Assembly (NCBI GenBank): GCA_001821395.1
Contig: MHLM01000004.1
Location: forward strand, 32,001-96,000
Direction: 5' to 3'
Source of the DNA: Candidatus Lloydbacteria bacterium RIFCSPHIGHO2_02_FULL_50_18
GTDB lineage: Bacteria > Patescibacteriota > Minisyncoccia > Phycocordibacterales > UBA6899
Length of the DNA: 64,000 nucleotides
How positions within the stretch are numbered: the stretch's first letter is position 1; every line of letters starts with the position of its first letter. Shown here in pieces: positions 3,293 to 58,512 of this stretch. Both the position numbers and the translations under genes were made by a program. A model generated the notes under the pieces. The model worked only from the letters and a program-made list of their open reading frames with translations, made no database searches and was not told where the DNA came from.

Positions 3293-3961
3293 TTAATGCG
3301 CGACGGCAAGCGCAAGAATACGCTTCGGTTTCCAGACCCTTACGACCCGCCGCGCCTCACTCATCGTGGCGCCGGTGGTGATGACATCGTCGATAAGGAT
3401 GACCGTTTTTCCGAATAGTTTTTCGCCGTCGCGGATGTCGAATGCATTGGCGACATTTTGGGCGCGCTTTACTCTTCCTCTCGCTTTTACCTGCTGGAGG
3501 ACCTCTTTCTTCTTATAGAGCACGTTTCTTGGGGCGGAGATGCGCATCCCATCCGCCTTTCCGCATTTTACGATAGTTTCGGCGATGATCGCTGCATGGT
3601 TGTACCCGCGCGACGCAAGCGCTTTCTTATTCGCAGGAATAGGGAGCAGTATGATCTCTTCACCAAGATGTTTCCCCCCTTTTATGAGCTGCTTGAAGAA
3701 TTCACGATAGAGTGCCGTTCCGAAATATCGTCCAAGCGCACGCCTCCGGTGGTATTTGAGTGCCCAGATCGCTTTTTTGACAAGTGGTTGTTGATAGTCA
3801 AAGAGTATCGCCGTCGTCCCCGAAAGCGCCTTCGCTTTTGTGGTAATCGCGCGTTCGCAGATGGCGCAGAGAGCGCTTCCTTCCCGACCACAGCCGATAC
3901 ACCGTTCGGGGAAAATAAACGAAAGAATGTCTTCCCATATCATATTTACCACAGTGTACAT
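3293..3961 (-). CDS. comFC: ComF family protein (ComFC, phosphoribosyltransferase-like competence protein)
   Basis: N-terminal CxxC...CxxC zinc finger (CIGCGREGSALCAICER) and a C-terminal PRTase motif (VILIDDVITTGATM). It is divergent from pilM. Confidence 0.8.
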   Translation of the reverse strand: MYTVVNMIWEDILSFIFPERCIGCGREGSALCAICERAITTKAKALSGTTAILFDYQQPLVKKAIWALKYHRRRALGRYFGTALYREFFKQLIKGGKHLGEEIILLPIPANKKALASRGYNHAAIIAETIVKCGKADGMRISAPRNVLYKKKEVLQQVKARGRVKRAQNVANAFDIRDGEKLFGKTVILIDDVITTGATMSEARRVVRVWKPKRILALAVAH

Positions 3962-4059
3962 GCCTTTATCGTCCCCGCAAGGTGGTACGCTGGCGTTCTC
4001 GCTCTTGTAGTCCCCACCTCGACTTCACTATTGATTTTATGCCGTGGTATGATTGTGTC

Positions 4060-5175
4060 ATGCCGAATCCGTTTGAAAAATTACTTGCCTCGTTCGCACC
4101 AAAAAAAGGGGGGAATGGCGTCGTGGGGGTGGACATTGGAAGCGCATTCATTAAGGTCGTAGAGTTGCACAAAAAGAATGGTAAGGCGGTGCTCGATACC
4201 TACGGCGAGATCGCTCTTGGTCCGCTTGCATCCCTTGAGGTTGGACAGGCGACAAACCTCACGACGGACAAGCTCGTTGAAGCGACGAATGATCTCTTTC
4301 TTGAAGCCAACGTCAAAAGTCGAAATCTCGTTTTTTCCCTTCCGCTTACATCGACCTTGGTGACGGTCATTGAAATGCCCGATGTCGGAGAGGCTAAATT
4401 GAAAGACATGATCCCGATGGAGGCGCGAAAGTATATCCCAACGTCTGTATCTGAAGTATCACTTTCACATTGGGTTATACCGAAGATCTCGCGTACCTAT
4501 ATCGATCCTGATAAGGCTGATGCGGAAAAAGGGGCACCTGCGAAGGTGGATGTGCTCCTTGCCGCAGTGCACAATGATGTGTTGGCAAAATACACCGATA
4601 TCGCCAAAAAACTTGGTGCAACGGCAACCGCATTTGAGATCGAGATATTTTCTACTATCCGTTCAACGATGAGCCGTGATACTACGGCGACGATGGTCGT
4701 TGATATCGGGGCGGGAAATACAAAGATCGCGATCGTTGAAGAAGGCGTTTTGCGGAGTTCTCATCTTATTAACGTAGGGTCCCAAGACGCAACGCTTGCA
4801 CTTTCACGTGCAAAAAGCATCAGCCTCCTCAGGGCGGAGGAGATAAAGCGCGAGTTCGGACTCTTGGGTGATCCGTCGGATGCATCGATCGCGGAGATCA
4901 CACGACTAGCTGTGGAACGCATCTTTTCCGAAGCAAGCCGAATTATGATGAACTACCAGCATGAAAAGCGCGTCAGTATCAATCGTGTCGTGCTTTCCGG
5001 AGGAGGGGTACTCATGAAGGGTGTCATGGATCTTGCGCAAAAAAGTTTTGAGACGACGGTGGTTAATGGTGATCCGTTTGCAAAGGTTGAGTCGCCTGCC
5101 GCCATCACTCCGCTCCTCAAGGAGTCCGGACCTGAGTTTGCGGTCGCCATTGGACTTGCGCTTCGAAATCTGTAG
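4060..5175 (+). CDS. pilM: type IV pilus assembly protein PilM (actin-like ATPase fold)
   Basis: GVDIGSAFIKVVEL N-terminal motif and the overall PilM/FtsA-like pattern. The start was chosen at MPNPFEK; the ORF is open from 3982. Confidence 0.75.
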   Translation: MPNPFEKLLASFAPKKGGNGVVGVDIGSAFIKVVELHKKNGKAVLDTYGEIALGPLASLEVGQATNLTTDKLVEATNDLFLEANVKSRNLVFSLPLTSTLVTVIEMPDVGEAKLKDMIPMEARKYIPTSVSEVSLSHWVIPKISRTYIDPDKADAEKGAPAKVDVLLAAVHNDVLAKYTDIAKKLGATATAFEIEIFSTIRSTMSRDTTATMVVDIGAGNTKIAIVEEGVLRSSHLINVGSQDATLALSRAKSISLLRAEEIKREFGLLGDPSDASIAEITRLAVERIFSEASRIMMNYQHEKRVSINRVVLSGGGVLMKGVMDLAQKSFETTVVNGDPFAKVESPAAITPLLKESGPEFAVAIGLALRNL

Positions 5176-5265
5176 TCGAGATCAAAAACCCGCATCTCTT
5201 TTTACTCAACTGTAGACAACTTCCTCGCAAAGTTTCTCTATTTCTTGTAAAATAAGGGTCTAGGA

Positions 5266-5973
5266 ATGCAAAATTCATTCGATACATCATTTATTCCGCA
5301 ACAGCCACTGCTTAAGGTGGCGGGGTTTGACCGCCGTCGCGAGTCGCTGAATCTCGCAATAGTGCTTTCGCTTGGCGCGTTTTTTATCGTACTTTTTGTC
5401 GCGGTGGGCGTCTATTTCTTTCATCGGAAGGTAGTGGGAGAGGTGCTTGCGCTTGCCGTGGAACTAGAGGATAAAGAAAAATTGATCGACATCGACGAGA
5501 TCGATCGTCTTAAGAGCGTCGATCTTCGTATCGTGGCAGCAAAAAATCTACTTCAAGATCATACGGTATTTACGATCATTCTTAATTTTCTGGAGGCGGG
5601 AACACTGAAAAACATAGGAATAACATCACTTTCCTACGCAAATAGTCCAGGCGGTTCTATTGTAAGTCTCGTCGCAGAGGCGCCAACCTACGAAGCGGTT
5701 TATTCGCAGGGAGAAACGTGGAGGAGCATGAAACCATTGGTTGAGAAAGTCGATATCTCCTCGGTTGTTCTTGCGGAAGCAACCGGTGTTGTTACTTTTA
5801 TTACAAAGATCACGATCAATCATGGTTTGACGCGTTATGCTGAATTTTTGAAGTCGGAAAAGATGAGTAAAAATGAGGAAATTACCGAGCCGGGTATTAT
5901 TCCGGTAATGAATGACCAATTCGAATTAGACGGAACGACATCATCCATACCAGTTAGTCCAGCCGCGCTATGA
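5266..5973 (+). CDS. pilN: PilN-like bitopic membrane protein
   Basis: Single N-terminal TM helix (LNLAIVLSLGAFFIVLFVAVGVYFF). Its position directly after pilM fits pilN. Confidence 0.5.
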   Translation: MQNSFDTSFIPQQPLLKVAGFDRRRESLNLAIVLSLGAFFIVLFVAVGVYFFHRKVVGEVLALAVELEDKEKLIDIDEIDRLKSVDLRIVAAKNLLQDHTVFTIILNFLEAGTLKNIGITSLSYANSPGGSIVSLVAEAPTYEAVYSQGETWRSMKPLVEKVDISSVVLAEATGVVTFITKITINHGLTRYAEFLKSEKMSKNEEITEPGIIPVMNDQFELDGTTSSIPVSPAAL

Positions 5974-6533
5974 TCAATAGATATCTCACTCCCGTGTTTC
6001 TCATGATCCTTTCGGGGGCAGTATATGTCATCTGGGTTGATGCACCATACAAAGATATTGCAGCACAACAAGCAAAGGCGGAGGTGTTGCGAGGCTACAT
6101 CGCTGATGCCGATAATGCACAGGAAGAATTACAAAAGATTGCGGCGCAGTATGATGCATTCCCCCCAGATGGTGATCGTCGTCTTCAGGTATTACTCCCC
6201 AAGGAGATCGATACCGTCCGTCTCATCATCGATGTGAATGAGATCGCCGCGCGTCATGGCATGGGCGTTAATGATCCGATGGTCGGGAAAGCGGCGACCG
6301 ATGAGTCGCGACCGCAAGCATACGTTCCGTACTCATTGAGTTTCAAAACGACCGCTACCTACGATGTATTTCGCGATTTTCTTGCTGACCTCGAACGATC
6401 GCTCGCGTTGCGTGATATTGTAACGGTGGAATTCTCTTCAGTCGCTTCTATCGCGGCTAGTAGCGGGTCGCAGCCTCCTGATGTCGCTATATTTAATTTC
6501 AGCATACATATCGTCAGTTACGGACTTCACTAA
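5970..6533 (+). CDS. pilO: PilO-like bitopic membrane protein
   Basis: Start overlaps the pilN stop (ATGA). It has an N-terminal TM helix and sits in the expected pilO position. Confidence 0.45.
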   Translation: MINRYLTPVFLMILSGAVYVIWVDAPYKDIAAQQAKAEVLRGYIADADNAQEELQKIAAQYDAFPPDGDRRLQVLLPKEIDTVRLIIDVNEIAARHGMGVNDPMVGKAATDESRPQAYVPYSLSFKTTATYDVFRDFLADLERSLALRDIVTVEFSSVASIAASSGSQPPDVAIFNFSIHIVSYGLH

Positions 6534-6534
6534 C

Positions 6535-6972
6535 ATGCATATGACCAAACAAGTTTTACTCGATATCCTTATCGTTCTCGTAGCCCCGATCATCCTCGTG
6601 GTGGGTTATTTGTATGTTGGAGCAGATAAAATGTCTTCTCTCTTTCTTGTGGCGCCACTTGATGTTGCTGCACTCCCCGGCGGAAACGGTGAAGAGATGG
6701 GGGCGAAAAGTACGGCTGCATTGAACGAACTTAGGTCAATTCATTTTGATGAAGCTCTTTTTTCTGACCCTACCTTCCAGTCGCTTATCGATTTCACCGG
6801 GTCTATCAGTACGACTACTGCTGGACGTCGCTATCCATTCTCGACACCCGATGAAGTAAAAATACTCTTGAAAAGGTCAGTCCAATCGGAGCCTGCCTCA
6901 TCGCAGAAGAATGGTGGTGCGGTAGTAAGTTCTACCGTTAAGATCGATACGGTCAAAAAGATCGCAAATTAG
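6535..6972 (+). CDS. hypothetical membrane protein, possibly a PilP-like component
   Basis: N-terminal TM helix followed by a low-complexity periplasmic region; it is the fourth gene of the pilMNO operon. Confidence 0.35.
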   Translation: MHMTKQVLLDILIVLVAPIILVVGYLYVGADKMSSLFLVAPLDVAALPGGNGEEMGAKSTAALNELRSIHFDEALFSDPTFQSLIDFTGSISTTTAGRRYPFSTPDEVKILLKRSVQSEPASSQKNGGAVVSSTVKIDTVKKIAN

Positions 6973-7247
6973 ATCGCGTTCGTTAAGGATGATGTGCGAA
7001 AAGGATGTAGTGTACGGCCTCATACTTATTCAGAACAACTGACACCGCATAACCCTTGTTTCACTTGGGGTGTTTTTTTGTTATCATAAAGCTATAGAAG
7101 ATCCGAGGTCCTTGGGCGGAAATCGTATCAGCGTTCCACGTTATCACCCACTCATATGAAGTACATGGCGGTCAAAGTATATTTACATAATCATAAGAAT
7201 GACCTTGATCTCTTACCGGGAGATAGTCATTTTTTGCCAACAACAAG

Positions 7248-8993
7248 ATGAGCTTTCCTCTATTTTTGGCACAAAAAGGATTGTTCCGCGAAGATGATAT
7301 TCCTGAATTGACGAAGGAGGCTGAAAAAGCGCTCGGAGGCATCGACGAGGTGCTTTCTCGCGGTGGTATGAGCGGAGATGATATTCTTACGCTCAAAAGT
7401 GAGTATTATGGAATGCCCGCTCGAACACTTGATGGCACCAAGATTCCCGTTGATGTGCTGAAGTATATTCCTGAAGATTCCGCACGACATTATCAGGTCG
7501 CCCCACTTTCGGTGGAAAATCAGATCCTCGAGATAGGTATCGTCGACCCTGATATGACGCAGGCGCGTGATGCCGTGCAATTCATCGCTGCGAAGCTCGG
7601 AATGCCTTTTAAATTCTTCCTCATTACGCAGACCGACTTCAATCAGATCCTTGTACAGTATCAAAATCTTTCGGGTGAGGTGGGAAAAGCGCTTTCCGAG
7701 CTGGGCACCGGAGAACATAAGGAGCTTACCGAGGCCTCGGCACAGGGTGATGTTTCAACGATCGACGAACATGCACGCGTTGATGTAAAAGGGGAGGAAT
7801 CAAGGATCGTTGAAGATGCACCGGTCACCAAAATCGTTGCCGTGATATTGAAACACGCCGTTGAGGGTAATGCGTCAGATGTGCATATCGAACATACGGG
7901 GGAGAAGGTCCGTGTGCGTTTTCGTGTCGATGGCGTCATGTATACCTCGCTTATTTTGCCCGTGAATGTCCATAGTGCCGTCGTTGCGCGCATCAAAATA
8001 TTGGCCCAGCTGAAATTGGACGAAAAGCGAAAGCCTCAGGATGGGCGCTTCTCTGCGCGGATGGATGACAAGAAAGTTGATTTCCGTGTCTCTACATTCC
8101 CAGCGTATTATGGCGAAAAGGTCGTGATGCGTATTCTGGATACCGGAAAGGGTGTAAAATCGCTCGATCAGATGGGTCTTTCCGCGGAGCATTTAAAGCT
8201 CTTGCGCGATGCGATCAGTACCCCGTACGGTCTTATTTTGGTGACGGGTCCGACCGGATCGGGAAAATCAACAACGCTGTATTCCATGCTGAACGAGCTT
8301 GATCGCGAAAAACGCAATGTGATCAGTCTTGAGGATCCGGTCGAGTACAATATCCCCGGAGTGAGCCAGTCACAAGTACGTCCCGAGATAGGGTATACCT
8401 TTGCGAGCGGACTTCGCTCGATCCTTCGTCAGGACCCCGATATCATCATGGTGGGAGAGATCCGCGATAAAGAGACTGCTCAGCTTGCGATACAGGCGGC
8501 ACTCACCGGGCATCTTGTGTTTTCGACGCTACATACGAACAACGCGGCAGGCGTCATTCCTCGTCTTATCGACATGGAAGTCGACCCATACCTCATCGCA
8601 CCAACCCTCATCATGGCGCTAGGTCAGCGACTGTTGCGTACGATGTGTCCCGAGTCGAAAAGCCCCGTACCGCTGACCGAAAGCATGAGATTGATGATCG
8701 AGAAGCAGCTTTCCGATCTCCCGAAGGAAGCACGCGACCTCATTACAATACCGGATCATGTATATGAAGCCGTCCCGTCTCCCTCGTGTCCGTCAGGAAC
8801 AAAGGGGCGCACGGCCGTATTTGAATTTTTGAAAATGGATCGAGATCTTGAGCATATTGTACTCACAAATCCTGTTGAGCAGGCGGTATATGAGGCGGCG
8901 CGGGCCAAGGGAATGCTTACTATGAAGGATGATGCCATTAAGAAGGCTTTTGAGGGCATAATTCCGTTCGAAGAGATCAACAACATCGTCTGA
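7248..8993 (+). CDS. pilB: type IV pilus assembly ATPase PilB (GspE family)
   Basis: N-terminal GSPII_E-N domain, Walker A GPTGSGKSTT and the His box VFSTLHTNNAAG; 581 aa. Confidence 0.9.
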   Translation: MSFPLFLAQKGLFREDDIPELTKEAEKALGGIDEVLSRGGMSGDDILTLKSEYYGMPARTLDGTKIPVDVLKYIPEDSARHYQVAPLSVENQILEIGIVDPDMTQARDAVQFIAAKLGMPFKFFLITQTDFNQILVQYQNLSGEVGKALSELGTGEHKELTEASAQGDVSTIDEHARVDVKGEESRIVEDAPVTKIVAVILKHAVEGNASDVHIEHTGEKVRVRFRVDGVMYTSLILPVNVHSAVVARIKILAQLKLDEKRKPQDGRFSARMDDKKVDFRVSTFPAYYGEKVVMRILDTGKGVKSLDQMGLSAEHLKLLRDAISTPYGLILVTGPTGSGKSTTLYSMLNELDREKRNVISLEDPVEYNIPGVSQSQVRPEIGYTFASGLRSILRQDPDIIMVGEIRDKETAQLAIQAALTGHLVFSTLHTNNAAGVIPRLIDMEVDPYLIAPTLIMALGQRLLRTMCPESKSPVPLTESMRLMIEKQLSDLPKEARDLITIPDHVYEAVPSPSCPSGTKGRTAVFEFLKMDRDLEHIVLTNPVEQAVYEAARAKGMLTMKDDAIKKAFEGIIPFEEINNIV

Positions 8994-9116
8994 ACTTTGT
9001 TTTTGGCGCATTGCTCGGCCTTCCCTTGGCAGGATTGGAAGCAGTATAACCCATACAGCTTCTCAATCACTGCCGCAGTCCAGACCTTCGCACTGCATCC
9101 AAAAACAAAGTTCAGA
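8992..9116. repeat. 17-bp perfect inverted repeat enclosing a ~90-nt loop, immediately after the pilB stop
   Basis: CTGAACTTTGTTTTTGG at 8992-9008 is exactly complementary to CCAAAAACAAAGTTCAG at 9100-9116. Confidence 0.7.
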
Positions 9117-9271
9117 TATTGCTCGGATATGAGCTTTTCCCGCACCTTATGATGCACCCACTTGCAGAGACGGGTCGAAAATCGCGCTACGCGCGGTCTC
9201 AGGACGGGTTGATTATTCCCTATGGTTATGAGTTGTATGAAAAGAGAGAAGTCATGATATTATAAACGCAT

Positions 9272-9673
9272 ATGCCAAAAGAAAAAAAAGAACCCACGAT
9301 CCTTATTATCGACGATGATTCATTTCTTCTCGATATGTATGCCTTAAAGTTTTCCCAGAAGAATTTTCATGTGACGACGGCATCCGGTACGCTCGAAGCT
9401 CTTGAAAAACTGCGCGGCGGATTTGTTCCGGAGATCATGGTTGTCGATCTCGTAATGCCGGCAATGGACGGGTTTGAATTCCTCGAAGTCGTGCGGGGAG
9501 AAAAGCTCGTGAAGGACTCATTGGTGATCATCCTCTCCAATCTTGGCGAACAGGAGGATATCGACCGCGGACTCGGACTTGGTGCGGCCGGGTACATCAT
9601 AAAGGCATCCGCTACGCCATCTGAGGTGGTGGAAAAAGTATCGGAAGTGCTCGGAAAGAGAGATAAAAAATAA
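9272..9673 (+). CDS. single-domain response regulator (CheY/PilH-like receiver)
   Basis: ILIIDDDSFLLDMYALKF...MPAMDGFEFLEVV matches a REC domain with the phospho-acceptor Asp. It lies between pilB and pilT. Confidence 0.8.
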   Translation: MPKEKKEPTILIIDDDSFLLDMYALKFSQKNFHVTTASGTLEALEKLRGGFVPEIMVVDLVMPAMDGFEFLEVVRGEKLVKDSLVIILSNLGEQEDIDRGLGLGAAGYIIKASATPSEVVEKVSEVLGKRDKK

Positions 9674-9687
9674 GACAAACCTATCAT

Positions 9688-10758
9688 ATGACCCAAGCTG
9701 AGTATAAAAAAGAACTAGAGGATCTCGTGCTGACGGTTATCCATGAAGGCGCTTCCGACCTGCATCTCGTTGTGGGTCGCCACCCGACGATCCGTGTTTC
9801 CGGAGAATTGATCCCGCTGGTCAAAAAACCACTACTCACACCCGAAGTGACGGAGGGATTGATAAGGGAATTGCTTACCGAAGAGATCTTCGTCAAATTC
9901 AAGCAGGATAAGGAGGTAGACTTTTCATTCTCTTTCGGTAAGGAGGCGCGTTTCCGCGGAAACGGTTTTTTTCAAAAAGGTACGATCGCAGTGGCACTCC
10001 GTCTCATTCCGAAGAAGATCAAAACTCTTCAGGAGCTTGCTTTGCCTCCGGTCTTGGAAATGTTCACCAAGCGAAAGCAAGGATTCTTTTTGGTCGTCGG
10101 TCCGGTTGGGCAGGGAAAATCGACCACACTTGCCGCAATGATCGAAATGATCAATCGCGAGCGTGCAGAGAACATCATCACCATCGAGGATCCGATCGAG
10201 TACGTGTTCACACCTGATCGTTCGATCATCAGTCAGCGTGAAGTGCATTTTGACACGAAGGATTTTCAGATCGCGTTGCATGCATGTTTTCGAGAGGACA
10301 TCGACATCATCTTGATCGGTGAAATGCGAGGACTTGAAACGATCTCGACGGCAGTGACCGCTGCTGAGACGGGGCATATGGTATTTTCGACGCTCCATAC
10401 CAACAATGCGTCACAAACGATCGACCGCATTATCGACTCATTTCCTCCTGAGCAGCAAGACCAGATCCGTGTCCAGCTTGCTGGTTCGCTCGCGGGAATA
10501 TTCTCACAACGTCTCGTTCCACGCATCTCCGGCGGTCTCGTTCCGGCATATGAACTCTTGATCAACAACAATGCAGTGGCCAACTTGATCCGTGAGCGTC
10601 GTACGCACGAGATACCGATGGTCATCGAGACGGGAATGGAGCTCGGCATGATCGATATGAACCGATCACTCGCGGAGCTCGTACGCGCAGGGGAGATCAC
10701 GGCGGAGAATGCGTATTTGCACTCCTTCAATCCGCGGTCACTCGAGCGAATGATCTAA
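9688..10758 (+). CDS. pilT: twitching-motility ATPase PilT
   Basis: Walker A GPVGQGKSTT, MVFSTLHTNNA and the PilT C-terminal AIRNLIRE-like motif (VANLIRERRTHEI); 356 aa. Confidence 0.9.
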   Translation: MTQAEYKKELEDLVLTVIHEGASDLHLVVGRHPTIRVSGELIPLVKKPLLTPEVTEGLIRELLTEEIFVKFKQDKEVDFSFSFGKEARFRGNGFFQKGTIAVALRLIPKKIKTLQELALPPVLEMFTKRKQGFFLVVGPVGQGKSTTLAAMIEMINRERAENIITIEDPIEYVFTPDRSIISQREVHFDTKDFQIALHACFREDIDIILIGEMRGLETISTAVTAAETGHMVFSTLHTNNASQTIDRIIDSFPPEQQDQIRVQLAGSLAGIFSQRLVPRISGGLVPAYELLINNNAVANLIRERRTHEIPMVIETGMELGMIDMNRSLAELVRAGEITAENAYLHSFNPRSLERMI

Positions 10759-10771
10759 CCATGACTTTCAT

Positions 10772-10875
10772 TTTTCGCGCCTCACTTTGTTACGGGGCCC
10801 CAGCGACTCGGTCAACATATATGAATATGTCTTCCTTGTCGCTTTCCCCGCGCCTCGTGACGCATCGAAAAATGA
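10772..10875. repeat. intergenic repeat A, copy 1 (about 93% identical to 35327-35440)
   Basis: TTTTCGCGCCTCACTTTGTT...CCCCAGCGACTCGGTCAACATATATGAATATGTCTTCCTTGTCGCTTTCCCCGCGCCTCGTGA(C/T)GCATCGAAAA. Both copies start within 15 nt after an ATPase-gene stop codon (pilT here; ftsE for copy 2). Confidence 0.8.
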
Positions 10876-11276
10876 AAGTCATGAAGGGTGTCGTTGTTCG
10901 ACGCCTCGCCCTGTATCAAAAAATAGGCCTCAGGTCTTATGTCGTGGGTCCGACAAACGTACTTTGAGTACGTCTGCTCGGACACCACTTCCTTGACGCC
11001 TCGTATTGCATCAGAAACCACGTCGAATTTGCATCTAATGCTCAACGCCTCGTGACGTATCGAAAAATGGAAGTGCTCTTGTGGCGCCTTGAGTACTGAA
11101 TTTTAGCAGTACGCTTATGGTATATCAAAAAATATTACTTCATATCGTTGATTGCTCGAATGTACTCCGAATATGTCTATCGGATATCGCCGCGTAAGGA
11201 GCCACCCTTCTTTGGTGGTTCGTTTTTATAAAGATGCTGTATAATATACTGGTCAGCTAAGTGACATCAACCACAT

Positions 11277-12488
11277 ATGCTTTATCGTTACAAATCCATT
11301 GATCAGTTAAGTGGAGAGGAGAAGTCCGGCACCATCGATGCGGCCTCAGTGGATATCGCGATAGGCTCGCTTCAGCGTCGAAAGTTGATCATCGTCTCTA
11401 TCGTCCCCGCAGACAACGTTCCGTTTTATGAAAAGATGATGTCGATCGGGCAAAAGGTCGCATATCGCGATGTCGTTATTTTGTCGCGCCAGATAGCGAC
11501 ACTCTTCAATGCGCAGGTCTCTGCGCTCCGTGTTTTTCAGCTACTCTCCCTTGAGGCGGAAAATGATATTCTCAAAGTACGCCTGAATGAGGTGACCGAA
11601 GATATTCAGGGCGGAATGTCTCTTTCCGATGCGCTCCATCGACATTCCGATATTTTCTCTGATTTTTATGTAAACATGGTGCGTGCGGGTGAGGAGTCAG
11701 GTAATCTTTCCAATACATTCAACTACCTCGCCGATTATCTTGATCGTTCGTTTGAACTTGTGTCAAAAACAAAGAATGCCCTGATCTACCCCGCTTTTGT
11801 TGTGGTGGTATTCATTATCGTGATGATCTTGATGCTGGTGATCGTCATACCAAAACTGTCAGCGATCATTACGGAGACCGGTAAAGAGCTTCCTTTTTAT
11901 ACAAAGGTCACGATCGGCGCCTCGAACTTTCTTATCCACTATGGCTTGTTCCTGCTCGTTATCGTGGTTATCGGAGTCTTTGCGCTCCTTCGTTTTATGA
12001 GCACTGATAAGGGAAAGGAAGCACTTTCTCAATTTTCCCTTACTCTTCCCTATATTGGCGATTTATACAAGAAGCTCTATCTCGCGCGTATCGCCGACAA
12101 CTTGAACACGATGCTTACATCGGGTATCGCCGTGGTGCGCGCGGTCGAGATAGCGGCTTCTGTCGTGGGGAATAAGGTCTATGAATCCATCCTGCTCGAG
12201 GTCTCGTCCGATGTGCGAACAGGTGTGTCGCTGTCACAGGCGATGAGTAAGCACCCAAAGGAGATTCCGGGGATCATGGTGCAGATGATCAAGGTGGGTG
12301 AGGAAACGGGAGAGGTGGGAAATATTCTTGAAACACTTTCAAAATTCTATAAACGAGAGGTTGATAACGCGGTTGAAACACTGATATCACTCATCGAGCC
12401 TGCAATGATCATCATGCTTGGACTTGGTGTGGGAGGGCTTCTGGTTTCGGTGCTGATGCCTATTTACGACATCGCCGGCTCCTTCTAG
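11277..12488 (+). CDS. pilC: type IV pilus inner-membrane platform protein PilC (GspF family)
   Basis: Duplicated GspF-type domains with conserved TM segments; 403 aa. Confidence 0.85.
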   Translation: MLYRYKSIDQLSGEEKSGTIDAASVDIAIGSLQRRKLIIVSIVPADNVPFYEKMMSIGQKVAYRDVVILSRQIATLFNAQVSALRVFQLLSLEAENDILKVRLNEVTEDIQGGMSLSDALHRHSDIFSDFYVNMVRAGEESGNLSNTFNYLADYLDRSFELVSKTKNALIYPAFVVVVFIIVMILMLVIVIPKLSAIITETGKELPFYTKVTIGASNFLIHYGLFLLVIVVIGVFALLRFMSTDKGKEALSQFSLTLPYIGDLYKKLYLARIADNLNTMLTSGIAVVRAVEIAASVVGNKVYESILLEVSSDVRTGVSLSQAMSKHPKEIPGIMVQMIKVGEETGEVGNILETLSKFYKREVDNAVETLISLIEPAMIIMLGLGVGGLLVSVLMPIYDIAGSF

Positions 12489-12745
12489 TCAAGAGTTCGC
12501 TAAGGTCGCGTCTACGTCGTTATCTGCGGAACGAACCCCGCTCGTCGTACTCCGAGTACGCCTCGGGAGGTGTCGTTCCTTGATGCCTCGTATCCACGAT
12601 CTTATCGGACTTTTGGGTGCGGCCTGCTCGCGGACCCTGTCACTTGGTCAACATATTTGCGTCAGCATCTTCCTTTTTTCCATTTTGGAACGACTTCCGT
12701 TGTTCTTTTTCTTAGGTTTGGTTAAAAAGACTCATATCGCATATA

Positions 12746-12751
12746 ATACCT
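12746..12751 (+). promoter_or_regulatory. candidate -10 box TATAAT upstream of the ABC transporter operon
   Basis: TTGGTT (12716), an 18-nt spacer, then TATAAT (12746), 15 nt before the ATG at 12767. Confidence 0.35.
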
Positions 12752-12766
12752 TCATCTATAAAGCGT

Positions 12767-13630
12767 ATGAATGCTATTGAAATTAAAAAATTATCAAAAG
12801 AGTATTATACGGTGGTTGGCACCGTGGCTGCGGTGCATGAGCTTTCGCTTACCGTTCCGAGCGGAAGCGTCTTCGGATTTCTCGGTCCGAATGGGGCCGG
12901 TAAGACGACGGCGATGAAAATGTTCGTCGGACTCACGGAGCCATCGTCGGGAGAGATCACTATCGCCGGGGGAAGCCCGAAAGACATTCTTACGAGGAAG
13001 CGCATCGGTTTTATGCCGGAGTCGCCCTCATTCTACGCGTATCTTTCGGGAAGAGAGTTTCTCGAACTGGTCGCTGCGATCTTTGGAACGGCAAATGCGA
13101 CCTCGCGTATCAATGAAGTGCTGAAAGAGGTCGACTTGGTCGGGAGGGAAGGGCGACAGATCCGCACGTACTCAAAGGGGATGCTGCAGCGGCTGGGCCT
13201 TGCACAGGCCATCCTTAATGATCCGGATATTCTCTTCCTTGATGAACCGCTTGACGGACTTGATCCGCTGGGGCGCGCGGAGATCAAGCAGGTCATCATT
13301 GCGCTCAAGGAGCGAGGGAAGACCGTTTTTCTCAATTCACACATCCTCGCCGATGTCGCAGAGATCTGTGATCAGGTCGGGATCATCGACAAGGGGTGTC
13401 TCATCGCTTGTGAGAGTCCTGAGATACTGTCAAAGGGCTATCGTGATCTTGAGGATGCATTTGTGCATATTATAAAGAACAAACGAGATATTTCAGGTGT
13501 CGGACATAAGCAAATGCAAATGGATGAAATTCGAGACGTGGGGGATGAGACGAGGAAGACGTATTCTGATACGTTGACTGAGTCTCGGGGGCCCCACAAC
13601 GAAGAAGTTCGCCATTTACATAAGTCCTAA
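12767..13630 (+). CDS. ABC transporter ATP-binding protein
   Basis: Walker A GPNGAGKTT, a signature-like YSKGMLQRLGLAQA, and Walker B ILFLDEP. Confidence 0.8.
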   Translation: MNAIEIKKLSKEYYTVVGTVAAVHELSLTVPSGSVFGFLGPNGAGKTTAMKMFVGLTEPSSGEITIAGGSPKDILTRKRIGFMPESPSFYAYLSGREFLELVAAIFGTANATSRINEVLKEVDLVGREGRQIRTYSKGMLQRLGLAQAILNDPDILFLDEPLDGLDPLGRAEIKQVIIALKERGKTVFLNSHILADVAEICDQVGIIDKGCLIACESPEILSKGYRDLEDAFVHIIKNKRDISGVGHKQMQMDEIRDVGDETRKTYSDTLTESRGPHNEEVRHLHKS

Positions 13631-13635
13631 TTATT

Positions 13636-14406
13636 ATGATGAACAGGATCCTCGCCATTGCTCGTAATACCTTTCGCGAAACGCTGCGTGACCGCATCTT
13701 GTGGTCGGCGCTCGTCGTCATGCTCGCGCTCATCGCATTTTCGCTTTTTGTCGGTTCGGTTTCATTGGGACAAGACCAGCGCATGATCATTGATTTTGGC
13801 TTGACCGCGATCTATCTGCTGCAGATCTTCGTTGCTATCTTCATCGGCTCGATGCTCATGTACCGCGAGGTTGACCGTAAGACATTCTTTCTGATCATTC
13901 CGAAGCCGATCCATCGGGAAGAGATCATTCTGGGAAAATGCCTTGGTCTCACCGCTACCACTATCGCGGTAACGGCCCTTTCGACCCTCGCACTTTTTTG
14001 TATCCTGTTCATAAGGGGGATTCATGGCGCATACCTTGCGATCCTCCTCTCGGTCCTCCTCTCGGTGTTCGAATCGGTCATTCTGATACTTCTTTCGATC
14101 TTGCTGTCGGGGCTAACCTCCCCGATCCTTGCCGCCATCTATACTATTGCCTTCTTTTTGATCGGTCATTCAAGCGACATCCTACGGACACTGATCGCTG
14201 CGCAAGAGTCGGCGGTGTCAGGTTTTTTCTTGAGTACGGCGTATTACGTCATGCCGAATCTCGAGAAATTCAACATTCGTAATGAGGTGGTGTATGGCGT
14301 GCTTCCCGATACGCGCGGTATTGCCGTTTCGGTTCTCTATGCGTTTTGCTATTCCGTCTTTCTTTTCCTTCTTGCGCGTGCCATGTTTAATAAAAAAGAG
14401 TTTTAA
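13636..14406 (+). CDS. ABC-2 family transporter permease
   Basis: Six predicted TM segments; directly downstream of the ABC ATPase. Confidence 0.6.
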   Translation: MMNRILAIARNTFRETLRDRILWSALVVMLALIAFSLFVGSVSLGQDQRMIIDFGLTAIYLLQIFVAIFIGSMLMYREVDRKTFFLIIPKPIHREEIILGKCLGLTATTIAVTALSTLALFCILFIRGIHGAYLAILLSVLLSVFESVILILLSILLSGLTSPILAAIYTIAFFLIGHSSDILRTLIAAQESAVSGFFLSTAYYVMPNLEKFNIRNEVVYGVLPDTRGIAVSVLYAFCYSVFLFLLARAMFNKKEF

Positions 14407-14472
14407 TTTCTTGCGACAAAGAGGTGATCCCTTAGCTTTGGAAGGTGTCACCTCAGAAATACCACCACTCTA

Positions 14473-15309
14473 ATGATCTTACATCCCCGCACATTCAACA
14501 TCGTCATGGTACTCGCCCCCCTCTTGTTTCTAGGCGCGTCCATCGGGGCGCAGCTTCGGTATGACGCGGTGCTGATGGAGCATTTTAACCTCCGGGAGCC
14601 GATGCATCGTTTCATCATGCCCGCTCCGGTCGTTCGCTATTTTGCTTTTGGATTTGAGAATATCCTCGCCGATTATTATTGGGTTTCCGCCATTCAGGAT
14701 CTCAACAAATGGGATAGACGTGATACATATTATCCGGAATATTTTCGTATCATTGCGACGCTCGACCCAAAATTTGAATACCCGTATACTTTTGCCGCAT
14801 TGACCATTCCGTCAAAAAAAAATCCCGAGTCGCTTACTTGGCTTGCTGATATTAGTGAGCGGGGGATGGTGGCACTCCCGTCAAGTTGGCAGATACCGTT
14901 CTACACCGGCTTAGAGTTTCACACCGTCGGGAGATTATACGAGCGAGCTGCGTATTATCTTGGTATCGCTTCTGCTATAGAATCAAGTCCGGAAGCGGCA
15001 CGTACCGCATATGGACTTTTTCTGCTTCATTCATCGACTGACTACGAGCGGTCACGCGCACTGTTCACTGCGATCTATGAAACTACCGATAGTCAGGAGA
15101 CCAAAAAGATAGCGCAAGAACGTATCATATTGCTCGATTTTATCGAAGCTGTTGATAGGGCATCGGAACTATATAAAGATCGCCATTTGATATATCCCGA
15201 ATCCCTTGAAGTGCTGGCAAGCGATGGGTTGATCCAAGTCCCTCCTGACCTCATCAAGCGATTTCCCATTGAGATAGACCTTCAAACTGGAAAAGCCTCT
15301 TTGTTGTAG
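14473..15309 (+). CDS. hypothetical protein with an N-terminal signal/TM segment
   Basis: 278-aa ORF with an N-terminal hydrophobic helix and no recognisable motifs. Confidence 0.4.
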   Translation: MILHPRTFNIVMVLAPLLFLGASIGAQLRYDAVLMEHFNLREPMHRFIMPAPVVRYFAFGFENILADYYWVSAIQDLNKWDRRDTYYPEYFRIIATLDPKFEYPYTFAALTIPSKKNPESLTWLADISERGMVALPSSWQIPFYTGLEFHTVGRLYERAAYYLGIASAIESSPEAARTAYGLFLLHSSTDYERSRALFTAIYETTDSQETKKIAQERIILLDFIEAVDRASELYKDRHLIYPESLEVLASDGLIQVPPDLIKRFPIEIDLQTGKASLL

Positions 15310-15509
15310 CCATTTCTGTGAACGGAGCAGCCGTTGCGGCCTGAGTCCCCACCCTCCTCCCTCGTGTGCAAGTACGACATAAAATACTCATGGTTATCCA
15401 CACCTCTTACATGCGGGAAATGTCCCGCGTGGTACCATTAATACATTGCCTGCTTCGGCTAATGAGGCAGATATATCTTGGTAATTATTAATTATTATTT
15501 AAATTTTTT

Positions 15510-16049
15510 ATGATGTTTATTTCATTGAAAAATCGTACGAAGGGTTTCACCCTGATCGAGCTCCTCGTTGTGATCGCGATCATCGGTATTCTGTCGTCCG
15601 TCGTGCTTGCATCGCTCTCGACTGCGCGGGCAAAGTCACGTGACGCAAAGCGCATCTCGGACCTTGGTCAGGTACAGCTTGCACTCGAGCTTTACTTCGA
15701 TTCAGCTCAAAGTTATCCGATCAGTGCGGCGGCTGCTCCGTACGTGATTCCCGCAGCTCTTGCGCCAACGTATATTCCGCTAGTTCCCGTTACTCCTGGA
15801 GGCGCGACTGCATACCAGTACCTCGGATTAGGGACTCCCGCAGCGAACATATATCCTAATTGTACCGTTGTTACGTGCAATTCGTATGGACTTTTTGCCG
15901 AGCTTGAGCGCAACGATAATACCATCGTTACGACGGACACTGACACTATCACTTCCGGCGTTGTTATCAGAGGTGATTCAGTCGCCTGTTTGGTGGCTGC
16001 TGCAGCAGCCGGTGCGGGACTTGAGCGTTGTTACGATATTAGGCCGTAA
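15510..16049 (+). CDS. pilA: type IV pilin (class III signal peptide; major pilin candidate)
   Basis: Prepilin leader MMFISLKNRTKG|FTLIELLVVIAIIGIL with G-1 and E+5. Confidence 0.8.
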   Translation: MMFISLKNRTKGFTLIELLVVIAIIGILSSVVLASLSTARAKSRDAKRISDLGQVQLALELYFDSAQSYPISAAAAPYVIPAALAPTYIPLVPVTPGGATAYQYLGLGTPAANIYPNCTVVTCNSYGLFAELERNDNTIVTTDTDTITSGVVIRGDSVACLVAAAAAGAGLERCYDIRP

Positions 16050-16080
16050 TACGGTTTTCATGGATCTCATTCGCGATTCG

Positions 16081-16116
16081 AAAAACACCCCGAGCTCATG
16101 CTCGGGGTGTTTTTTG
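16081..16116 (+). terminator. rho-independent terminator after the pilin gene
   Basis: AAAAACACCCCGAGC-tcat-GCTCGGGGTGTTTTTT: a perfect 10-bp stem followed by a T-run. Confidence 0.8.
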
Positions 16117-16422
16117 TTTCCTTGAACCCCCCTCCAATGTCAAGGTTTAACCTTGACAAAAAATGATGAAAATATGGCTATAAATGGTAAATAAAAGCGT
16201 GTCAGTAGACTTTGCTTTCGTGTGCTTGCTTTGACTTCAGAGCTTTTGGGCCGACGTAGTATCTTACTGCCATTGTATTGAGGATAGCCTGCAAATATGA
16301 AGTTTTTTGGGGACATCACTGTTGAGCGCCGATGAACGAAATTTGAACAAGGGTGAGAGATCCATTAGCACTGCGCCGTTCGTGCCCTGCATAACTGTCG
16401 CAGTGATCTGCGGTACTCATGG

Positions 16423-16428
16423 TATAAT
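16423..16428 (+). promoter_or_regulatory. TATAAT -10 box 9 nt upstream of the pilD ATG (possible leaderless transcript)
   Basis: GGTATAATTGTTGCTATATG; the ATG is at 16438. Confidence 0.35.
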
Positions 16429-16437
16429 TGTTGCTAT

Positions 16438-17265
16438 ATGGATGGTTATCATTTGGTTCTTCTTGCATTGACATTCGTTCTTGGTGTCTCTATCGGGAGC
16501 TTCGTGAACGTACTTATTTTTCGCCTGCGCAGCGGTTCTCGGCTCACTGGACGCTCTAAGTGCATGTCCTGCGGGAGGACGCTCACTCCGTGGATGCTCA
16601 TTCCGCTTTTCTCGTTTTGTTATCAGCGCGGGAAATGTGCATACTGCGGAGCGCGTATCGCACTTCAGTATCCGCTCGTAGAGATCATCCTCGGAATGCT
16701 CTACGTCGTCATTGCGCTCGTTCACGGGTACGACCCTCTTCAGACCTCGGTCAGCCAGACTTTTTTTGTGCTTGGTGACATGGTCATTTGGACGACATTG
16801 CTCGCCGTTACCGTCTACGACCTCCGACACAAGATCATACCTGATAGCTTCTCCCTTTTCCTTGCCGCTACGGCAGGTATGTTGTTGCTCGTGAAGTGGA
16901 AGTTAGGAATACTCCCCACTGCCTATTTGCCATTTTGGGAAACGATGCCCTCATGGATAGACCTTCTTGCGGGACCACTAGTGGCGGCACCGTTCGCTCT
17001 GCTCTGGTTCTTTTCGGGTGGGCGCGCGATGGGGTTAGGTGACGCGAAGCTCGTCTGGGGGATTGCTTGGTTCTTGGGTTTTGCGGAGGGCATTTCTTCC
17101 GTCATTCTTGCGTTCTGGGTCGCGTTCTTCCCCAGCCTCATGCTGTTGTTACTTCGATCAAAGCATTTTACAATGAAAAGCGAGATACCCTTTGCACCCT
17201 TTCTTGTGGCTGGAGCGTTTCTCGCATATGTATTTCAGATCAATATCTTGAATTGGACATTTTAA
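16438..17265 (+). CDS. pilD: prepilin peptidase PilD (A24 family aspartic peptidase / N-methyltransferase)
   Basis: N-terminal tetra-Cys zinc motif CMSCGRTLTPW...CAYCGARI, a multi-TM body, and conserved acidic residues. Confidence 0.85.
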   Translation: MDGYHLVLLALTFVLGVSIGSFVNVLIFRLRSGSRLTGRSKCMSCGRTLTPWMLIPLFSFCYQRGKCAYCGARIALQYPLVEIILGMLYVVIALVHGYDPLQTSVSQTFFVLGDMVIWTTLLAVTVYDLRHKIIPDSFSLFLAATAGMLLLVKWKLGILPTAYLPFWETMPSWIDLLAGPLVAAPFALLWFFSGGRAMGLGDAKLVWGIAWFLGFAEGISSVILAFWVAFFPSLMLLLLRSKHFTMKSEIPFAPFLVAGAFLAYVFQINILNWTF

Positions 17266-17308
17266 TATGCGTACATTTTTACCGATACAAAAGTGCGAGA
17301 GAAGAACG

Positions 17309-17953
17309 ATGATTAACCTCGATACTCCTTGTGGGAGGGGCACACGATCCTACCCCGTCACCGCGGGATTCACCCTTCTGGAGATGCTTGTTACACTGTC
17401 TATCTTTGTGATAATCACTTCAACGCTGTTGATCAGTTATAGTGGCTTCAATAAGCATCTCAGTGTTGATACGCTTGCGCACGAGATCGGTCAATGGATC
17501 CGTGATGCTCAGGTTTCTGCGATGAGCGTGAAGAGTGCGAGGACGGTTGCGGGAATGTATCCGGGCTATGGGGTCCATTTCACACTCAGCGATCCAGGGA
17601 AATTCATTTTTTTTGCCGACTTGGACAGCGATGATCAATACGACCCCGGTGTTTGTGGTGCGGCAGGATCGGAGTGTGAACGAGAAATAGTGTTAACCCA
17701 AGGAAATAAGATCGATGCTCTTTGCGGGGTGACCACGGGTGGTATTTTCACTGCAAAATGTCTTTCGCCGAATGGCGCATCGAGCGTGTTCGATATCGTC
17801 TTTACGCGTCCTGATCCGGATGCTGTTATCAGTGGAGACCTGAACGGTGGGGCTTCGAGCGGATACAGTAGCGCACGCATCACGATCGTTTCGCTCCAGG
17901 GGTATCGTCGCACCGTCGAAGCATGGATCACGGGGCAGATATCTATTCAATGA
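17309..17953 (+). CDS. minor pilin / pseudopilin
   Basis: Prepilin motif G|FTLLEMLVTLSIFVII. The ORF is open from 17267; the ATG was chosen at 17309. Confidence 0.7.
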   Translation: MINLDTPCGRGTRSYPVTAGFTLLEMLVTLSIFVIITSTLLISYSGFNKHLSVDTLAHEIGQWIRDAQVSAMSVKSARTVAGMYPGYGVHFTLSDPGKFIFFADLDSDDQYDPGVCGAAGSECEREIVLTQGNKIDALCGVTTGGIFTAKCLSPNGASSVFDIVFTRPDPDAVISGDLNGGASSGYSSARITIVSLQGYRRTVEAWITGQISIQ

Positions 17954-18612
17954 TCAATTCCAACATGAAATTTTCACTTCGCAACGATAATCAAAAAAAG
18001 ATCAATGACACGGGTGGGTTCACCCTGCTCGAAATGCTCGTTTCGACCTCACTCTTCATCGTCGCCATGCTCGTTATCGTGAGCGCGCTTATCTCGCTCG
18101 AGACGGCAAGTAGAAAAGCGCGAACGATCCGTATTGCCGCAGATAATGTGAGCGCCGCTGTCAGTTCGATGTCGCGTGCAATTCGCATGGGTAGTTATAT
18201 TCATTGCGGGTGCACAGGAACGCACGCAGTGCTTGCTGCGCCGCAGGACTGTGAGATCAGCGGTGCAGGTACGGGAGAGCTCCCGGCTAGTGGTGGTACC
18301 TGTCTTGCATTCGAGGCTCAGAACGGAAATCCGCTGATAGACAGTGATCAGTACGTCTATCGGTTGTGGAACAACCGCATTCAGCGCTCAGTTAATAGTG
18401 GTGACGACTGGCTCGATATGACCGCGCCGGAGATCAGGATCGATGCTCTCGCCTTTTACGTTGGGGGGACGGAACTCAACGAGAACCAGCCGTATGTGAC
18501 CATGCTCGTCCGTGGAACAGCGACCTCTCCGATTGTAAAGATTAATACAACATTCGATATCGAGACCACCGTCGCCGTGCGCACCCCAAACCTTAATCTC
18601 TTCATTCCATGA
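17950..18612 (+). CDS. minor pilin / pseudopilin
   Basis: GG|FTLLEMLVSTSLFIVAML; ATGA overlap with the upstream gene. Confidence 0.7.
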   Translation: MINSNMKFSLRNDNQKKINDTGGFTLLEMLVSTSLFIVAMLVIVSALISLETASRKARTIRIAADNVSAAVSSMSRAIRMGSYIHCGCTGTHAVLAAPQDCEISGAGTGELPASGGTCLAFEAQNGNPLIDSDQYVYRLWNNRIQRSVNSGDDWLDMTAPEIRIDALAFYVGGTELNENQPYVTMLVRGTATSPIVKINTTFDIETTVAVRTPNLNLFIP

Positions 18613-19205
18613 CTTGCATAAAAACAACCAGACCAAGCACCGCTGGATTCACCTTGATCGAAGCACTCGCCTCGATCACGCTTTTGGTGATGGCGATATC
18701 GGGGCCTATGGTGCTTTCCGCACAGAGTCTTCGCGTTTCGCGCGAAGCTCGTCTTCAACTTGAGGCGACGCAGCTTGCGGAGGAAGGTATCGAGATCGTC
18801 CATTCTTTGCGCGACGACAATTCCGCCGATGGCACACCTTGGATGACTGACATTTTGAGTGAGTGTAGTAATCCTGCTCAGCCTTGCATTGCAGATATCA
18901 CTGAACATTCCGGACTGAGCAGTACGGCGTGGCATCATAATGCACTGAAGAGCTGTGCTTCCGCTTGTGCATCCTTGGCGTCGCTCTACAAACACAATGT
19001 AAGCGGAATATATCGGCAAAAGACGAGTGGCTTTGGAGCAGGTTGGACAAAAAGTGATTTCACTCGGCTCATCACGCTGACGGAAGTTGTCGCGGGGCGT
19101 GAAGTGAAGGTGACCTCGACGGTGACGTACAAAGGCTATTCCGGTCAGACACGGACGATCACGGTGACCGGGGATCTCTATAATTGGTTCCCAGACCTCC
19201 ACTAA
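18609..19205 (+). CDS. minor pilin / pseudopilin
   Basis: TAG|FTLIEALASITLLVMAI; start overlaps the upstream stop. Confidence 0.7.
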   Translation: MTCIKTTRPSTAGFTLIEALASITLLVMAISGPMVLSAQSLRVSREARLQLEATQLAEEGIEIVHSLRDDNSADGTPWMTDILSECSNPAQPCIADITEHSGLSSTAWHHNALKSCASACASLASLYKHNVSGIYRQKTSGFGAGWTKSDFTRLITLTEVVAGREVKVTSTVTYKGYSGQTRTITVTGDLYNWFPDLH

Positions 19206-19209
19206 ATGT

Positions 19210-19743
19210 ATGCAAACAATCCGACAAAAATCGTCATGCGAAAAAAAAGAGGGATTCATCCTGCTGCTCACTGTACTGGTCACGAGTGTGATCCTGGCCA
19301 TCAGTTTTAGTATTTTTAGCATCAGTTTGAAGGAGTTGATCATGGCGTCGTTTCTAAAAAATTCCGCACAGGCATTCGCTGCCGCCGATCGCGGGGTCGA
19401 GTGCGCGCTCTTTTGGGATAGAACTCCGACCCCGGTAAATCCGCAAAGCGGAATTACTTATACGATATTTGCCACGTCGAGCGCTTATCAGGCGCCGACA
19501 AATTTATCTAATGCGACCTGTGATGGGATTCAGCTCGATACCTCTGCTTGGTTGGTAAGCGGGCTGACTACGACACAGGGGAAGACCGTATTTCAGATCT
19601 CGTTCGCAGATTTGACCTGCGTAGAGGTATCGGTGCTTAAGGATAGCGGTGAAACAACGGTGACTGCGAACGGTTTCAATACTTGCAACGCATCGAGTGA
19701 GCGAAAAACACAGCGCACTATTCAAGTTCGTACGAATCTGTGA
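19210..19743 (+). CDS. PilX-like minor pilin
   Basis: N-terminal GFILLLTVLVTSVILAISFSIFS hydrophobic segment; last gene of the minor pilin operon. Confidence 0.55.
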   Translation: MQTIRQKSSCEKKEGFILLLTVLVTSVILAISFSIFSISLKELIMASFLKNSAQAFAAADRGVECALFWDRTPTPVNPQSGITYTIFATSSAYQAPTNLSNATCDGIQLDTSAWLVSGLTTTQGKTVFQISFADLTCVEVSVLKDSGETTVTANGFNTCNASSERKTQRTIQVRTNL

Positions 19744-19819: not shown

Positions 19820-21865
<2,046 letters not shown>

Positions 21866-33297: not shown

Positions 33298-33353
33298 GCG
33301 TCGCTCCTTTTTCTTGTCTGTGCCTATTCAACCCGTGTTTGCGTATTGAGTCA

Positions 33354-44444: not shown

Positions 44445-44445
44445 G

Positions 44446-58496: not shown

Positions 58497-58512
58497 TGGG
58501 GTAGTATGCCAT

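Follow-up and report, generated by a model that had tools for sequence, protein, structure and literature searches.

A PilGHI-like ABC transporter cassette in the type IV pilus gene cluster of a Candidatus Lloydbacteria genome

The excerpts of Nelson & Stegen (2015, PMC4508563) used here describe a type IV pilus operon of Parcubacteria from which PilQ is missing, and place ComEC, ComF and DprA in the core genome; those of Méheust et al. (2019, PMC6744442) draw a pilus-plus-competence model for bacteria of the Candidate Phyla Radiation (CPR) in general. In Myxococcus xanthus, the pilA-pilG-pilH-pilI operon (MXAN_5783-5780) codes for the pilin, an accessory factor, an ATPase of the ATP-binding cassette (ABC) type and a permease; piliation depends on all three transporter genes (PMC3546991, PMC3724824, PMC5544727). 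The genetic evidence for this need comes from M. xanthus only (PMC3724824, PMC5544727), and the same pilG/pilH/pilI genes have been noted in Geobacter-type clusters (PMC6060248). Here we analyzed a 64,000-nt stretch of the genome of Candidatus Lloydbacteria bacterium RIFCSPHIGHO2_02_FULL_50_18, which is an ultra-small groundwater bacterium, (this stretch is referred to as the window) and focused on the block at 3293-19743, where a type IV pilus gene cluster contains a three-gene ABC cassette. We consider it likely that a Parcubacterium inherited this block vertically as its type IVa-like pilus operon, with a cassette of PilGHI type and a pilus that serves several purposes. The pilus cluster itself is ordinary for the phylum, being an already published core operon of Parcubacteria; the link between the transporter and PilGHI is a modest new point.

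Families were assigned by Pfam and NCBIfam profile scans of the open reading frames (ORFs) of the window, with the trusted/equivalog cut-offs of NCBIfam applied. For synteny, 80 loci were fetched from genomes of related species, and their ORFs were called and compared with the window proteins. Identical protein sequences are present on contigs of Rifle aquifer groundwater metagenomes, and the nearest relatives of PilC, taking one genome per species, come from metagenome-assembled genomes (MAGs) of Paceibacterota/Parcubacteria including Candidatus Lloydbacteria, with 65-80% identity. An initial annotation of this DNA had named a full set of pilus genes in the block, and the ORF list together with the Pfam and NCBIfam scans places every one of them where it had put them. 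These comparisons demonstrate what the genes are, that their synteny is conserved, that the cassette has homologues and that it is repeatedly linked with pilus genes.

The ABC cassette and its likeness to PilGHI

The cassette comes after pilC, and 200 bp separate its end from the major pilin gene downstream. It consists, in this order, of a PilH-like ABC ATPase (12767-13630), a PilI-like ABC-2 permease (13639-14406) and a PilG-like single-pass protein of 278 amino acids with a tetratricopeptide repeat (TPR)-like fold (14473-15309); these and all other cluster genes except comF are on the plus strand. The ATPase matches ABC_tran with E 2e-28, the DrrA subfamily being closest, and the permease matches PF12679 and PF12730. 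The 278-residue protein has no match in Pfam or NCBIfam and was placed by its structure model and by hhalign. Its AlphaFold model (pLDDT 86.8) has an N-terminal transmembrane helix and an all-helical TPR-like domain, which is predicted from the positive-inside rule to face outward. This product had initially been listed simply as a membrane protein; the membrane anchor stands, and the description can now be refined to a single-pass protein with a TPR-like domain. Its family comprises 49 clusters in CPR and about 2,200 clusters at 50% identity in the wider set, and no Pfam or NCBIfam model covers it. PilG-like TPR proteins are a sizeable family that current pipelines annotate as "hypothetical". 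Wherever the flanking sequence suffices to judge, the three genes stand side by side, and low-GC loci always keep the order ATPase, permease, TPR protein (H-I-G).

Members of the 278-residue family on high-GC contigs occur in the order pilA-G-H-I-pilD, and the named ones belong to MAGs of Myxococcales, Myxococcota and Deltaproteobacteria. In addition, one diderm contig reads pilT-pilC-pilS-pilR-pilA-[H-I-G]-pilM-N-O-pilQ secretin. The TPR family of CPR aligns with the family in the pilG slot of Myxococcota over 233 columns (hhalign 99.4%, E 1.8e-21). Identity between the window and Myxococcota proteins amounts to 44-48% for the ATPase (H), 31-34% for the permease (I) and about 25% for the TPR protein (G), and the Myxococcota permease carries the same two families, PF12679 and PF12730. 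Because the Myxococcota cassette occupies the slot of pilG-pilH-pilI and its TPR family is homologous to that of the window, we read the window cassette as a PilH/PilI/PilG-type module; it is most likely a PilGHI-type pilus accessory. The M. xanthus genes pilG-pilH-pilI were reportedly described by Wu et al. in 1998, and their need for piliation is said to have been known since then and its mechanism to have stayed unexplained. No paper on an ABC transporter in CPR pilus clusters came up in a literature search.

The linkage of the cassette to pilus genes is recurrent. Of the non-redundant low-GC loci, 21 extend at least 5 kb to either side of the cassette, and 11 of these carry pilus genes no more than 10 kb away from it; the chance expectation for a single cluster of about 16 kb in a genome of about 1 Mb would be a few percent, which is a rough and uncomputed estimate. 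The pilus-linked cassettes show at least six arrangements. First, the cassette stands between pilC and the pilin gene, as in the window. Second, it directly follows comF on the far side of the cluster and is co-directional with it (L087). Third, it closes the cluster on the ligA side, where ligA comes next in the opposite orientation. Fourth, it is inverted between pilD and the pilin gene, both of which are on the minus strand (L140, L145). Fifth, it is inverted after the pilin gene (L073), and sixth, it directly follows isolated pilin genes (L107, L135). In eight of the remaining loci (L109, L114, L115, L116, L117, L130, L133 and L141), the cassette lies 0.4-4 kb from a convergent gene for a membrane-anchored HHH_3 (ComEA-type) protein, mostly with at least one gene between, and recG comes next. 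This neighbourhood probably represents a single lineage and is only suggestive. ATP synthase genes are found upstream of the cassette in five or six of the eight loci.

The cassette has diverged like its surroundings. Within the clade of the window, identity ranges from 72 to 77% for the ABC-2 permease, from 65 to 74% for the ATPase and from 72 to 76% for PilC, and the GC content of the cassette is 0.494, compared with 0.492 for the rest of the cluster. The matching divergence and GC content argue that the cassette was inherited with the cluster and lost later in some lines, rather than inserted recently; a recent horizontal insertion was rejected on these grounds. The cassette is preceded, on its pilC side, by a terminator-like site, and downstream of the pilin gene there is a strong intrinsic terminator (16079-16116, plus strand; a 17-bp stem with nine G-C pairs, then a T run). 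As weak evidence, this pair of sites would fit a single transcription unit of cassette and pilin. GldAFG was considered for the three genes and rejected: the GldA model gives 173.9, below its cut-off of 402.6, and the third protein is a TPR protein, not GldG.

Since the cassette mostly adjoins the major pilin gene and exists where there is no outer membrane, a piliation role, if conserved, would be exerted at the cytoplasmic membrane. We tentatively suggest, with belief and doubt nearly balanced, that the PilGHI-type cassette is an accessory of ancient origin in type IVa pilus and competence machines, acting near the pilin both in diderm clusters of Myxococcota type and in CPR. If so, PilGHI would handle pilin at the cytoplasmic membrane, modify pilin or prime the fibre, and would not serve export to the outer membrane. 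Cassettes beside pilin genes in bacteria without an outer membrane, together with those close to a comEA-like gene in one lineage, narrow the place where PilGHI can act.

The pilus machine and its conserved order

Across the 80 related species genomes the gene order is nearly invariant: comF on the minus strand, then pilM-N-O-(small protein)-pilB-receiver-pilT-pilC-pilin (one to four copies)-pilD-four minor pilins-ligA. The divergent comF adjoins pilM in 53 of 54 loci, despite a protein divergence of 25-60%. The receiver is found between pilB and pilT in 62 of 72 loci, the pilin gene directly after pilC in 62 of 66, and ligA directly after the minor pilins in 45 of 46. In the window, ligA is the downstream neighbour of the cluster (19856-21865, plus strand, with NAD-dependent ligase domains).

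The motor and platform genes are readily recognized. The extension ATPase gene pilB (7248-8993) has T2SSE (395 bits) and MshEN domains, and its product possesses Walker A, Walker B and the His box; it scores about 497 bits against each of the PilB and GspE models, below their equivalog cut-offs. Both PilB and PilC miss the NCBIfam equivalog cut-offs, as expected in a distant lineage. The retraction ATPase gene pilT (9688-10758) passes TIGR01420 (428.5, cut-off 319.1), and PilT carries Walker A, the His box and AVANLIRE as a variant of the AIRNLIRE motif. The platform gene pilC (11277-12488) contains two T2SSF domains (E 1.7e-57, 193 bits). The presence of both an extension and a retraction ATPase, as initially annotated, is supported in what appears to be a complete type IVa-like machine. 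Between the two motor genes, a receiver-only response regulator of CheY/PilH type (9272-9673, 133 amino acids, Response_reg E 7e-17) has its phospho-acceptor residues intact, namely DD, D59, S89 and K111.

About 8 kb beyond the left end of the window there are a second receiver, also of 133 amino acids, and a PAS-HisKA-HATPase kinase (L168 1-1292); the two receivers are 37% identical. After this pair come the genes of two adhesin-like proteins described below. The kinase and the second receiver may provide two-component input to pilus dynamics. The receiver between the motors and this upstream kinase-receiver pair are candidate regulators of pilus dynamics in organisms that have very few signalling genes.

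As for the alignment proteins, the actin-like cytoplasmic ring protein PilM (4039-5175, the start taken from the public gene call) matches PilM_2 (E 4e-30) and passes TIGR01175 (144.8, cut-off 133). The gene for PilO (5970-6533) gives weak matches to PilO, the Pfam match being weak too, and to GspM; the profile of its orthologues matches the M. xanthus PilO chain of 3jc8 with E 8.5e-13. The initial annotation had also listed pilN and a pilP-like gene. Both genes exist, and their names follow from position and topology, no model or structure matching them. The pilN-like gene (5266-5973) encodes a bitopic protein of 235 amino acids with one transmembrane helix at residues 31-49 and has orthologues in 49 related loci. 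The protein has no match in Pfam, NCBIfam or PDB, including a profile search of PDB sequences, and its profile does not match that of PilO; its single-sequence structure model, with pLDDT 44, is unusable. An N-terminal S-F-x-P motif (FxTSFIPKKP) is invariant in 18 orthologues, and this segment may be a PilM-binding peptide. The small bitopic protein in the pilP position (6535-6972, 145 amino acids), whose identity as PilP is not demonstrated, has no family match, and the profile search of PDB sequences was empty; it possesses a transmembrane helix and, near the C-terminus, an R..PF motif (GRxNPFxP) that is invariant in 12 orthologues.

The major pilin PilA (15510-16049, 179 amino acids, N_methyl E 1.9e-9) has the cleavage motif G↓FTLIELLVV, and its class III signal peptide and hydrophobic N-terminal helix read G↓FTLIELLVVIAIIGIL. 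The prepilin peptidase gene pilD follows (16438-17265; A24_N_bact E 9e-26, Peptidase_A24 E 7e-7). There are four minor pilins of GspH/I/J/K-like type, of which the first three show N_methyl matches and the motif G↓FTL(L/I)E. Minor pilin 1 (17309-17953, GspH/ComGD-like, G↓FTLLE) matches ComGD and GspH weakly, minor pilin 2 (17923-18612, PpdB/GspJ-like) matches PRK10557 (E 6e-8) and, weakly, PpdB, and minor pilin 3 (18609-19205, PilV/GspI-like) matches PilV (E 4e-5). Minor pilin 4 (19210-19743, GspK/PilX-like) begins its mature part with G↓FILLL and a hydrophobic helix and lacks Glu5; Glu at position +5 is found in 0 of 56 orthologues. The ATGA overlaps reported at the outset are real, at 5970-5973 for pilN/pilO and at 18609-18612 for minor pilins 2 and 3.

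No Secretin or PilP domain is found among the window ORFs scanned, which agrees with the initial statement that pilQ is absent and that this fits a monoderm, and with the described secretin-less cluster of CPR/Parcubacteria. The absence of PilP and PilQ is the published state for CPR in the excerpts of PMC4508563 and PMC6744442, and monoderm type IVa pili are likewise without PilP and PilQ (PMC10191384); a monoderm type IVa variant is therefore still admissible. A sortase gene with a peptidoglycan-binding domain (window 57606-58568) is compatible with a Gram-positive-like envelope.

The gap between pilT and pilC holds a non-coding insert of about 520 bp (10759-11276). It contains four copies of a 23-29 nt direct repeat, the exact core being CGCCTCGTGACGYATCGAAAAATG (positions 10851 and 11046). 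Two arms of 18 nt, 10760-10777 and 10866-10883, form a perfect inverted repeat. In 79 related species the pilT-pilC gap measures only 5-250 bp, so the insert is specific to this organism. An Rfam scan of the cluster returned no riboswitch or other RNA, its matches being only look-alikes at the terminator.

We infer the functions of all cluster genes and propose that they would work as follows. PilM, the PilN-like protein, PilO and the small protein in the pilP position would form the membrane alignment complex, PilC would be the platform, and PilB would polymerise and PilT depolymerise the pilin processed by PilD. The four minor pilins, of GspH, GspJ, GspI and GspK type, would prime the fibre, and an envelope without an outer membrane would need no secretin. 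The receiver-only regulator, whose gene separates those of the motors, probably adjusts how the pilus switches between extension and retraction; the cassette most likely has its place of action at the cytoplasmic membrane, where it would affect the pilin or an assembly step. Such a pilus would let the cell attach to a host or surface and twitch on it. With ComF, and with ComEC and DprA from genes elsewhere, it would capture DNA as well.

Alternative readings of the pilus and the cassette

A number of points weigh against the reading of the block as a multi-purpose type IVa-like pilus operon with a PilGHI-type accessory. The identities of PilN and PilP are backed by no model. The similarity of the ABC ATPase is not specific, and the link to PilGHI was drawn from where the genes lie in Myxococcota MAGs and from the published gene order, rather than from aligning the M. 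xanthus proteins directly; homologue searches for a named Myxococcus PilG returned only MAG proteins labelled "hypothetical" or "TPR repeat protein". The comEA-like gene is convergent, not always adjacent and probably confined to one lineage. Among the more distant low-GC cassettes, about half lack pilus genes up to a distance of 10 kb, and a Cloacimonetes cassette adjoins uvrB, so the cassette could have a more general membrane role. Promoter and terminator scans were overall not above shuffled controls. Moreover, the flanks of the window, covered for about 10 kb on the right and about 8.6 kb on the left, yielded no comEC, dprA or comEA, and in cultivated Saccharibacteria the pilus is essential for host association and comEC is dispensable for growth (PMC10633639).

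A role of the pilus in DNA uptake is plausible; this idea has already been published as a hypothesis, and here it is a reasonable deduction. It is favoured by the divergent comF beside pilM in 53 of 54 related genomes and by the published place of ComEC, ComF and DprA in the Parcubacteria core (PMC4508563). Natural transformation is real and ComEC-dependent in Saccharibacteria (PMC10633639). The comF gene (3293-3961, minus strand), which is divergent from pilM, encodes PF00156 (PRTase/Pribosyltran) and DZR_2 domains. Both features of ComFC are present, that is, an N-terminal four-Cys zinc finger (C21-x2-C24...C32-x2-C35) and a PRTase-like domain; the match to TIGR00201 has E 1.2e-22 and a score of 80.8, below the cut-off of 233.55. 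No comEA, comEC or dprA was found among the window ORFs scanned. The initial annotation had also counted a TfoX_N protein and a Pif1 helicase towards competence. Both genes are present, at 44097-44444 (115 amino acids, E 1.3e-27) and 39235-41130, and they are not useful as competence evidence, the TfoX protein lacking a TfoX_C domain and any NCBIfam match. A full TfoX/Sxy regulator was rejected for it, only the TfoX_N domain being there. The TfoX_N gene is immediately downstream of a gene for a TspO/MBR family membrane protein on the minus strand (44097-44841).

The pilus could instead be mainly a device for host attachment and twitching similar to that of Saccharibacteria, with the synteny of comF and ligA free of functional meaning and DNA uptake at most a side activity. 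This is quite possible, though we incline to doubt it. The type IV pilus genes of S. epibionticum are essential, and it does not need comEC, comF or dprA to grow (PMC10633639); TM7x uses its two pili to bind the host and to twitch (PMC11623550). Adhesin-like proteins are also encoded just upstream of the cluster, namely an MBG_3 protein of 1884 amino acids and an immunoglobulin-like (Big_13) protein of 573 amino acids (L168 1428-8815, window 74-1480), and comF is divergent and outside the operon. However, comF keeps its place in the 53 of 54 loci mentioned above in spite of the 25-60% protein divergence, and in L087 it has the same orientation as the cassette. Competent bacteria usually capture DNA with retractile type IVa pili, and the roles in attachment and DNA uptake are not exclusive.

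The ABC cassette, for its part, might be unrelated cargo, such as an exporter of a drug, lipid, glycan or peptide, that occupies a variable hotspot flanked by pilC and the pilin gene and plays no part in the pilus. We regard this as unlikely. It is true that the cassette follows pilC in only two of 66 relatives and is missing at this site from the other 64, including equally close ones (L005, L007, L009 and L011-L013), that the pilC-pilD interval is variable, with one to four pilin copies, and that the best family matches of the cassette are generic DrrA-type and ABC-2 exporters; the distant homologous cassettes lying away from pilus genes, about half of them, point the same way. Nevertheless, the cassette recurs beside pilin, pilD, comF or ligA genes in at least six arrangements and at least three distant groups (CPR, Myxococcota and another diderm), which by the rough estimate given above is far more than chance would produce. 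Its divergence and GC content equal those of the flanking pilus genes, and the Myxococcus system in the same slot is needed for piliation (PMC3724824). Unlinking of the ABC pair from the cluster in relatives had been named initially as evidence against its belonging there; the pair does stand at the pilC site in just those two relatives, yet the linkage returns in other arrangements. Similarly, the description of the exporter as a lineage-specific accessory holds in that most relatives lack it, and fails in that it is a recurrent three-gene cassette beside pilus genes with homologues in Myxococcota. The embedded exporter is most likely better called a PilGHI-like accessory module than a lineage-specific oddity.

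That the cluster makes a Com-type pseudopilus or a type II secretion-like system, not a surface type IV pilus, is very unlikely: the pilins match the ComGC/D/E/F and GspG/H/I/J models weakly, PilB scores equally against GspE and PilB and no secretin is present, but the ComGA and ComGB models stay below their cut-offs (257.5 against 300 and 131.9 against 240), bona fide PilT and PilM-PilO are present, which Com systems lack, as type II secretion systems lack PilT (PMC10191384), and a pilin of 179 residues, its gene followed by a strong terminator, is typical of a major pilin gene. A ComG-type pilus was rejected on the two cut-offs together with PilT, PilM and PilO, and a type II secretion system on PilT.

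Elsewhere in the window, a release-factor-2-like ORF (33339-34280) has no N-terminal part, and the ORF upstream of it (32998-33357) overlaps it in another frame; the pair looks like the usual programmed +1 frameshift of prfB. A 111-residue SWIB/MDM2-domain protein with a basic, histone-H1-like N-terminus is encoded at 61645-61980.

Comparison with known systems

The published operon of Parcubacteria and other CPR bacteria (excerpts of PMC4508563 and PMC6744442) shares pilM, N, O, B, T, C, D and the pilins with the present cluster, as well as the lack of PilQ and the association with ComF, ComEC and DprA. Compared with it, the present lineage adds the ABC cassette between pilC and the pilin gene and the insert of about 520 bp between pilT and pilC. 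The receiver, the comF and ligA boundaries and the ABC cassette find no mention in those excerpts. The T4P-1 locus and com system of Saccharibacteria likewise combine PilB, PilT, PilC, PilMNO, PilD and several pilins with ComEC-dependent competence (PMC10633639, PMC11623550). However, these two papers mention no response regulator or ABC transporter in the locus, and a single pilus locus is seen here, against two or three in Saccharibacteria.

The Com pilus of Firmicutes (ComGA-GG) is also a secretin-less DNA-uptake filament of monoderms, with four minor pilins of which one is without Glu5, but it lacks PilT and PilM/N/O, which are present in the window cluster. GldA/GldF/GldG of Bacteroidota resemble the cassette in uniting an ATPase, an ABC-2 permease and a third membrane protein with a tie to surface motility; they differ in that the third protein of the cassette is a small TPR protein, not GldG. 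In pilA-pilG-pilH-pilI of M. xanthus, as in the window, the major pilin gene of a type IVa cluster has genes for an accessory factor, an ATPase and an ABC-2-type permease as neighbours. The order differs, A-G-H-I in M. xanthus and H-I-G upstream of the pilin gene in the window, and the bacterium of the window has no outer membrane or secretin; the two were compared by way of Myxococcota MAGs.

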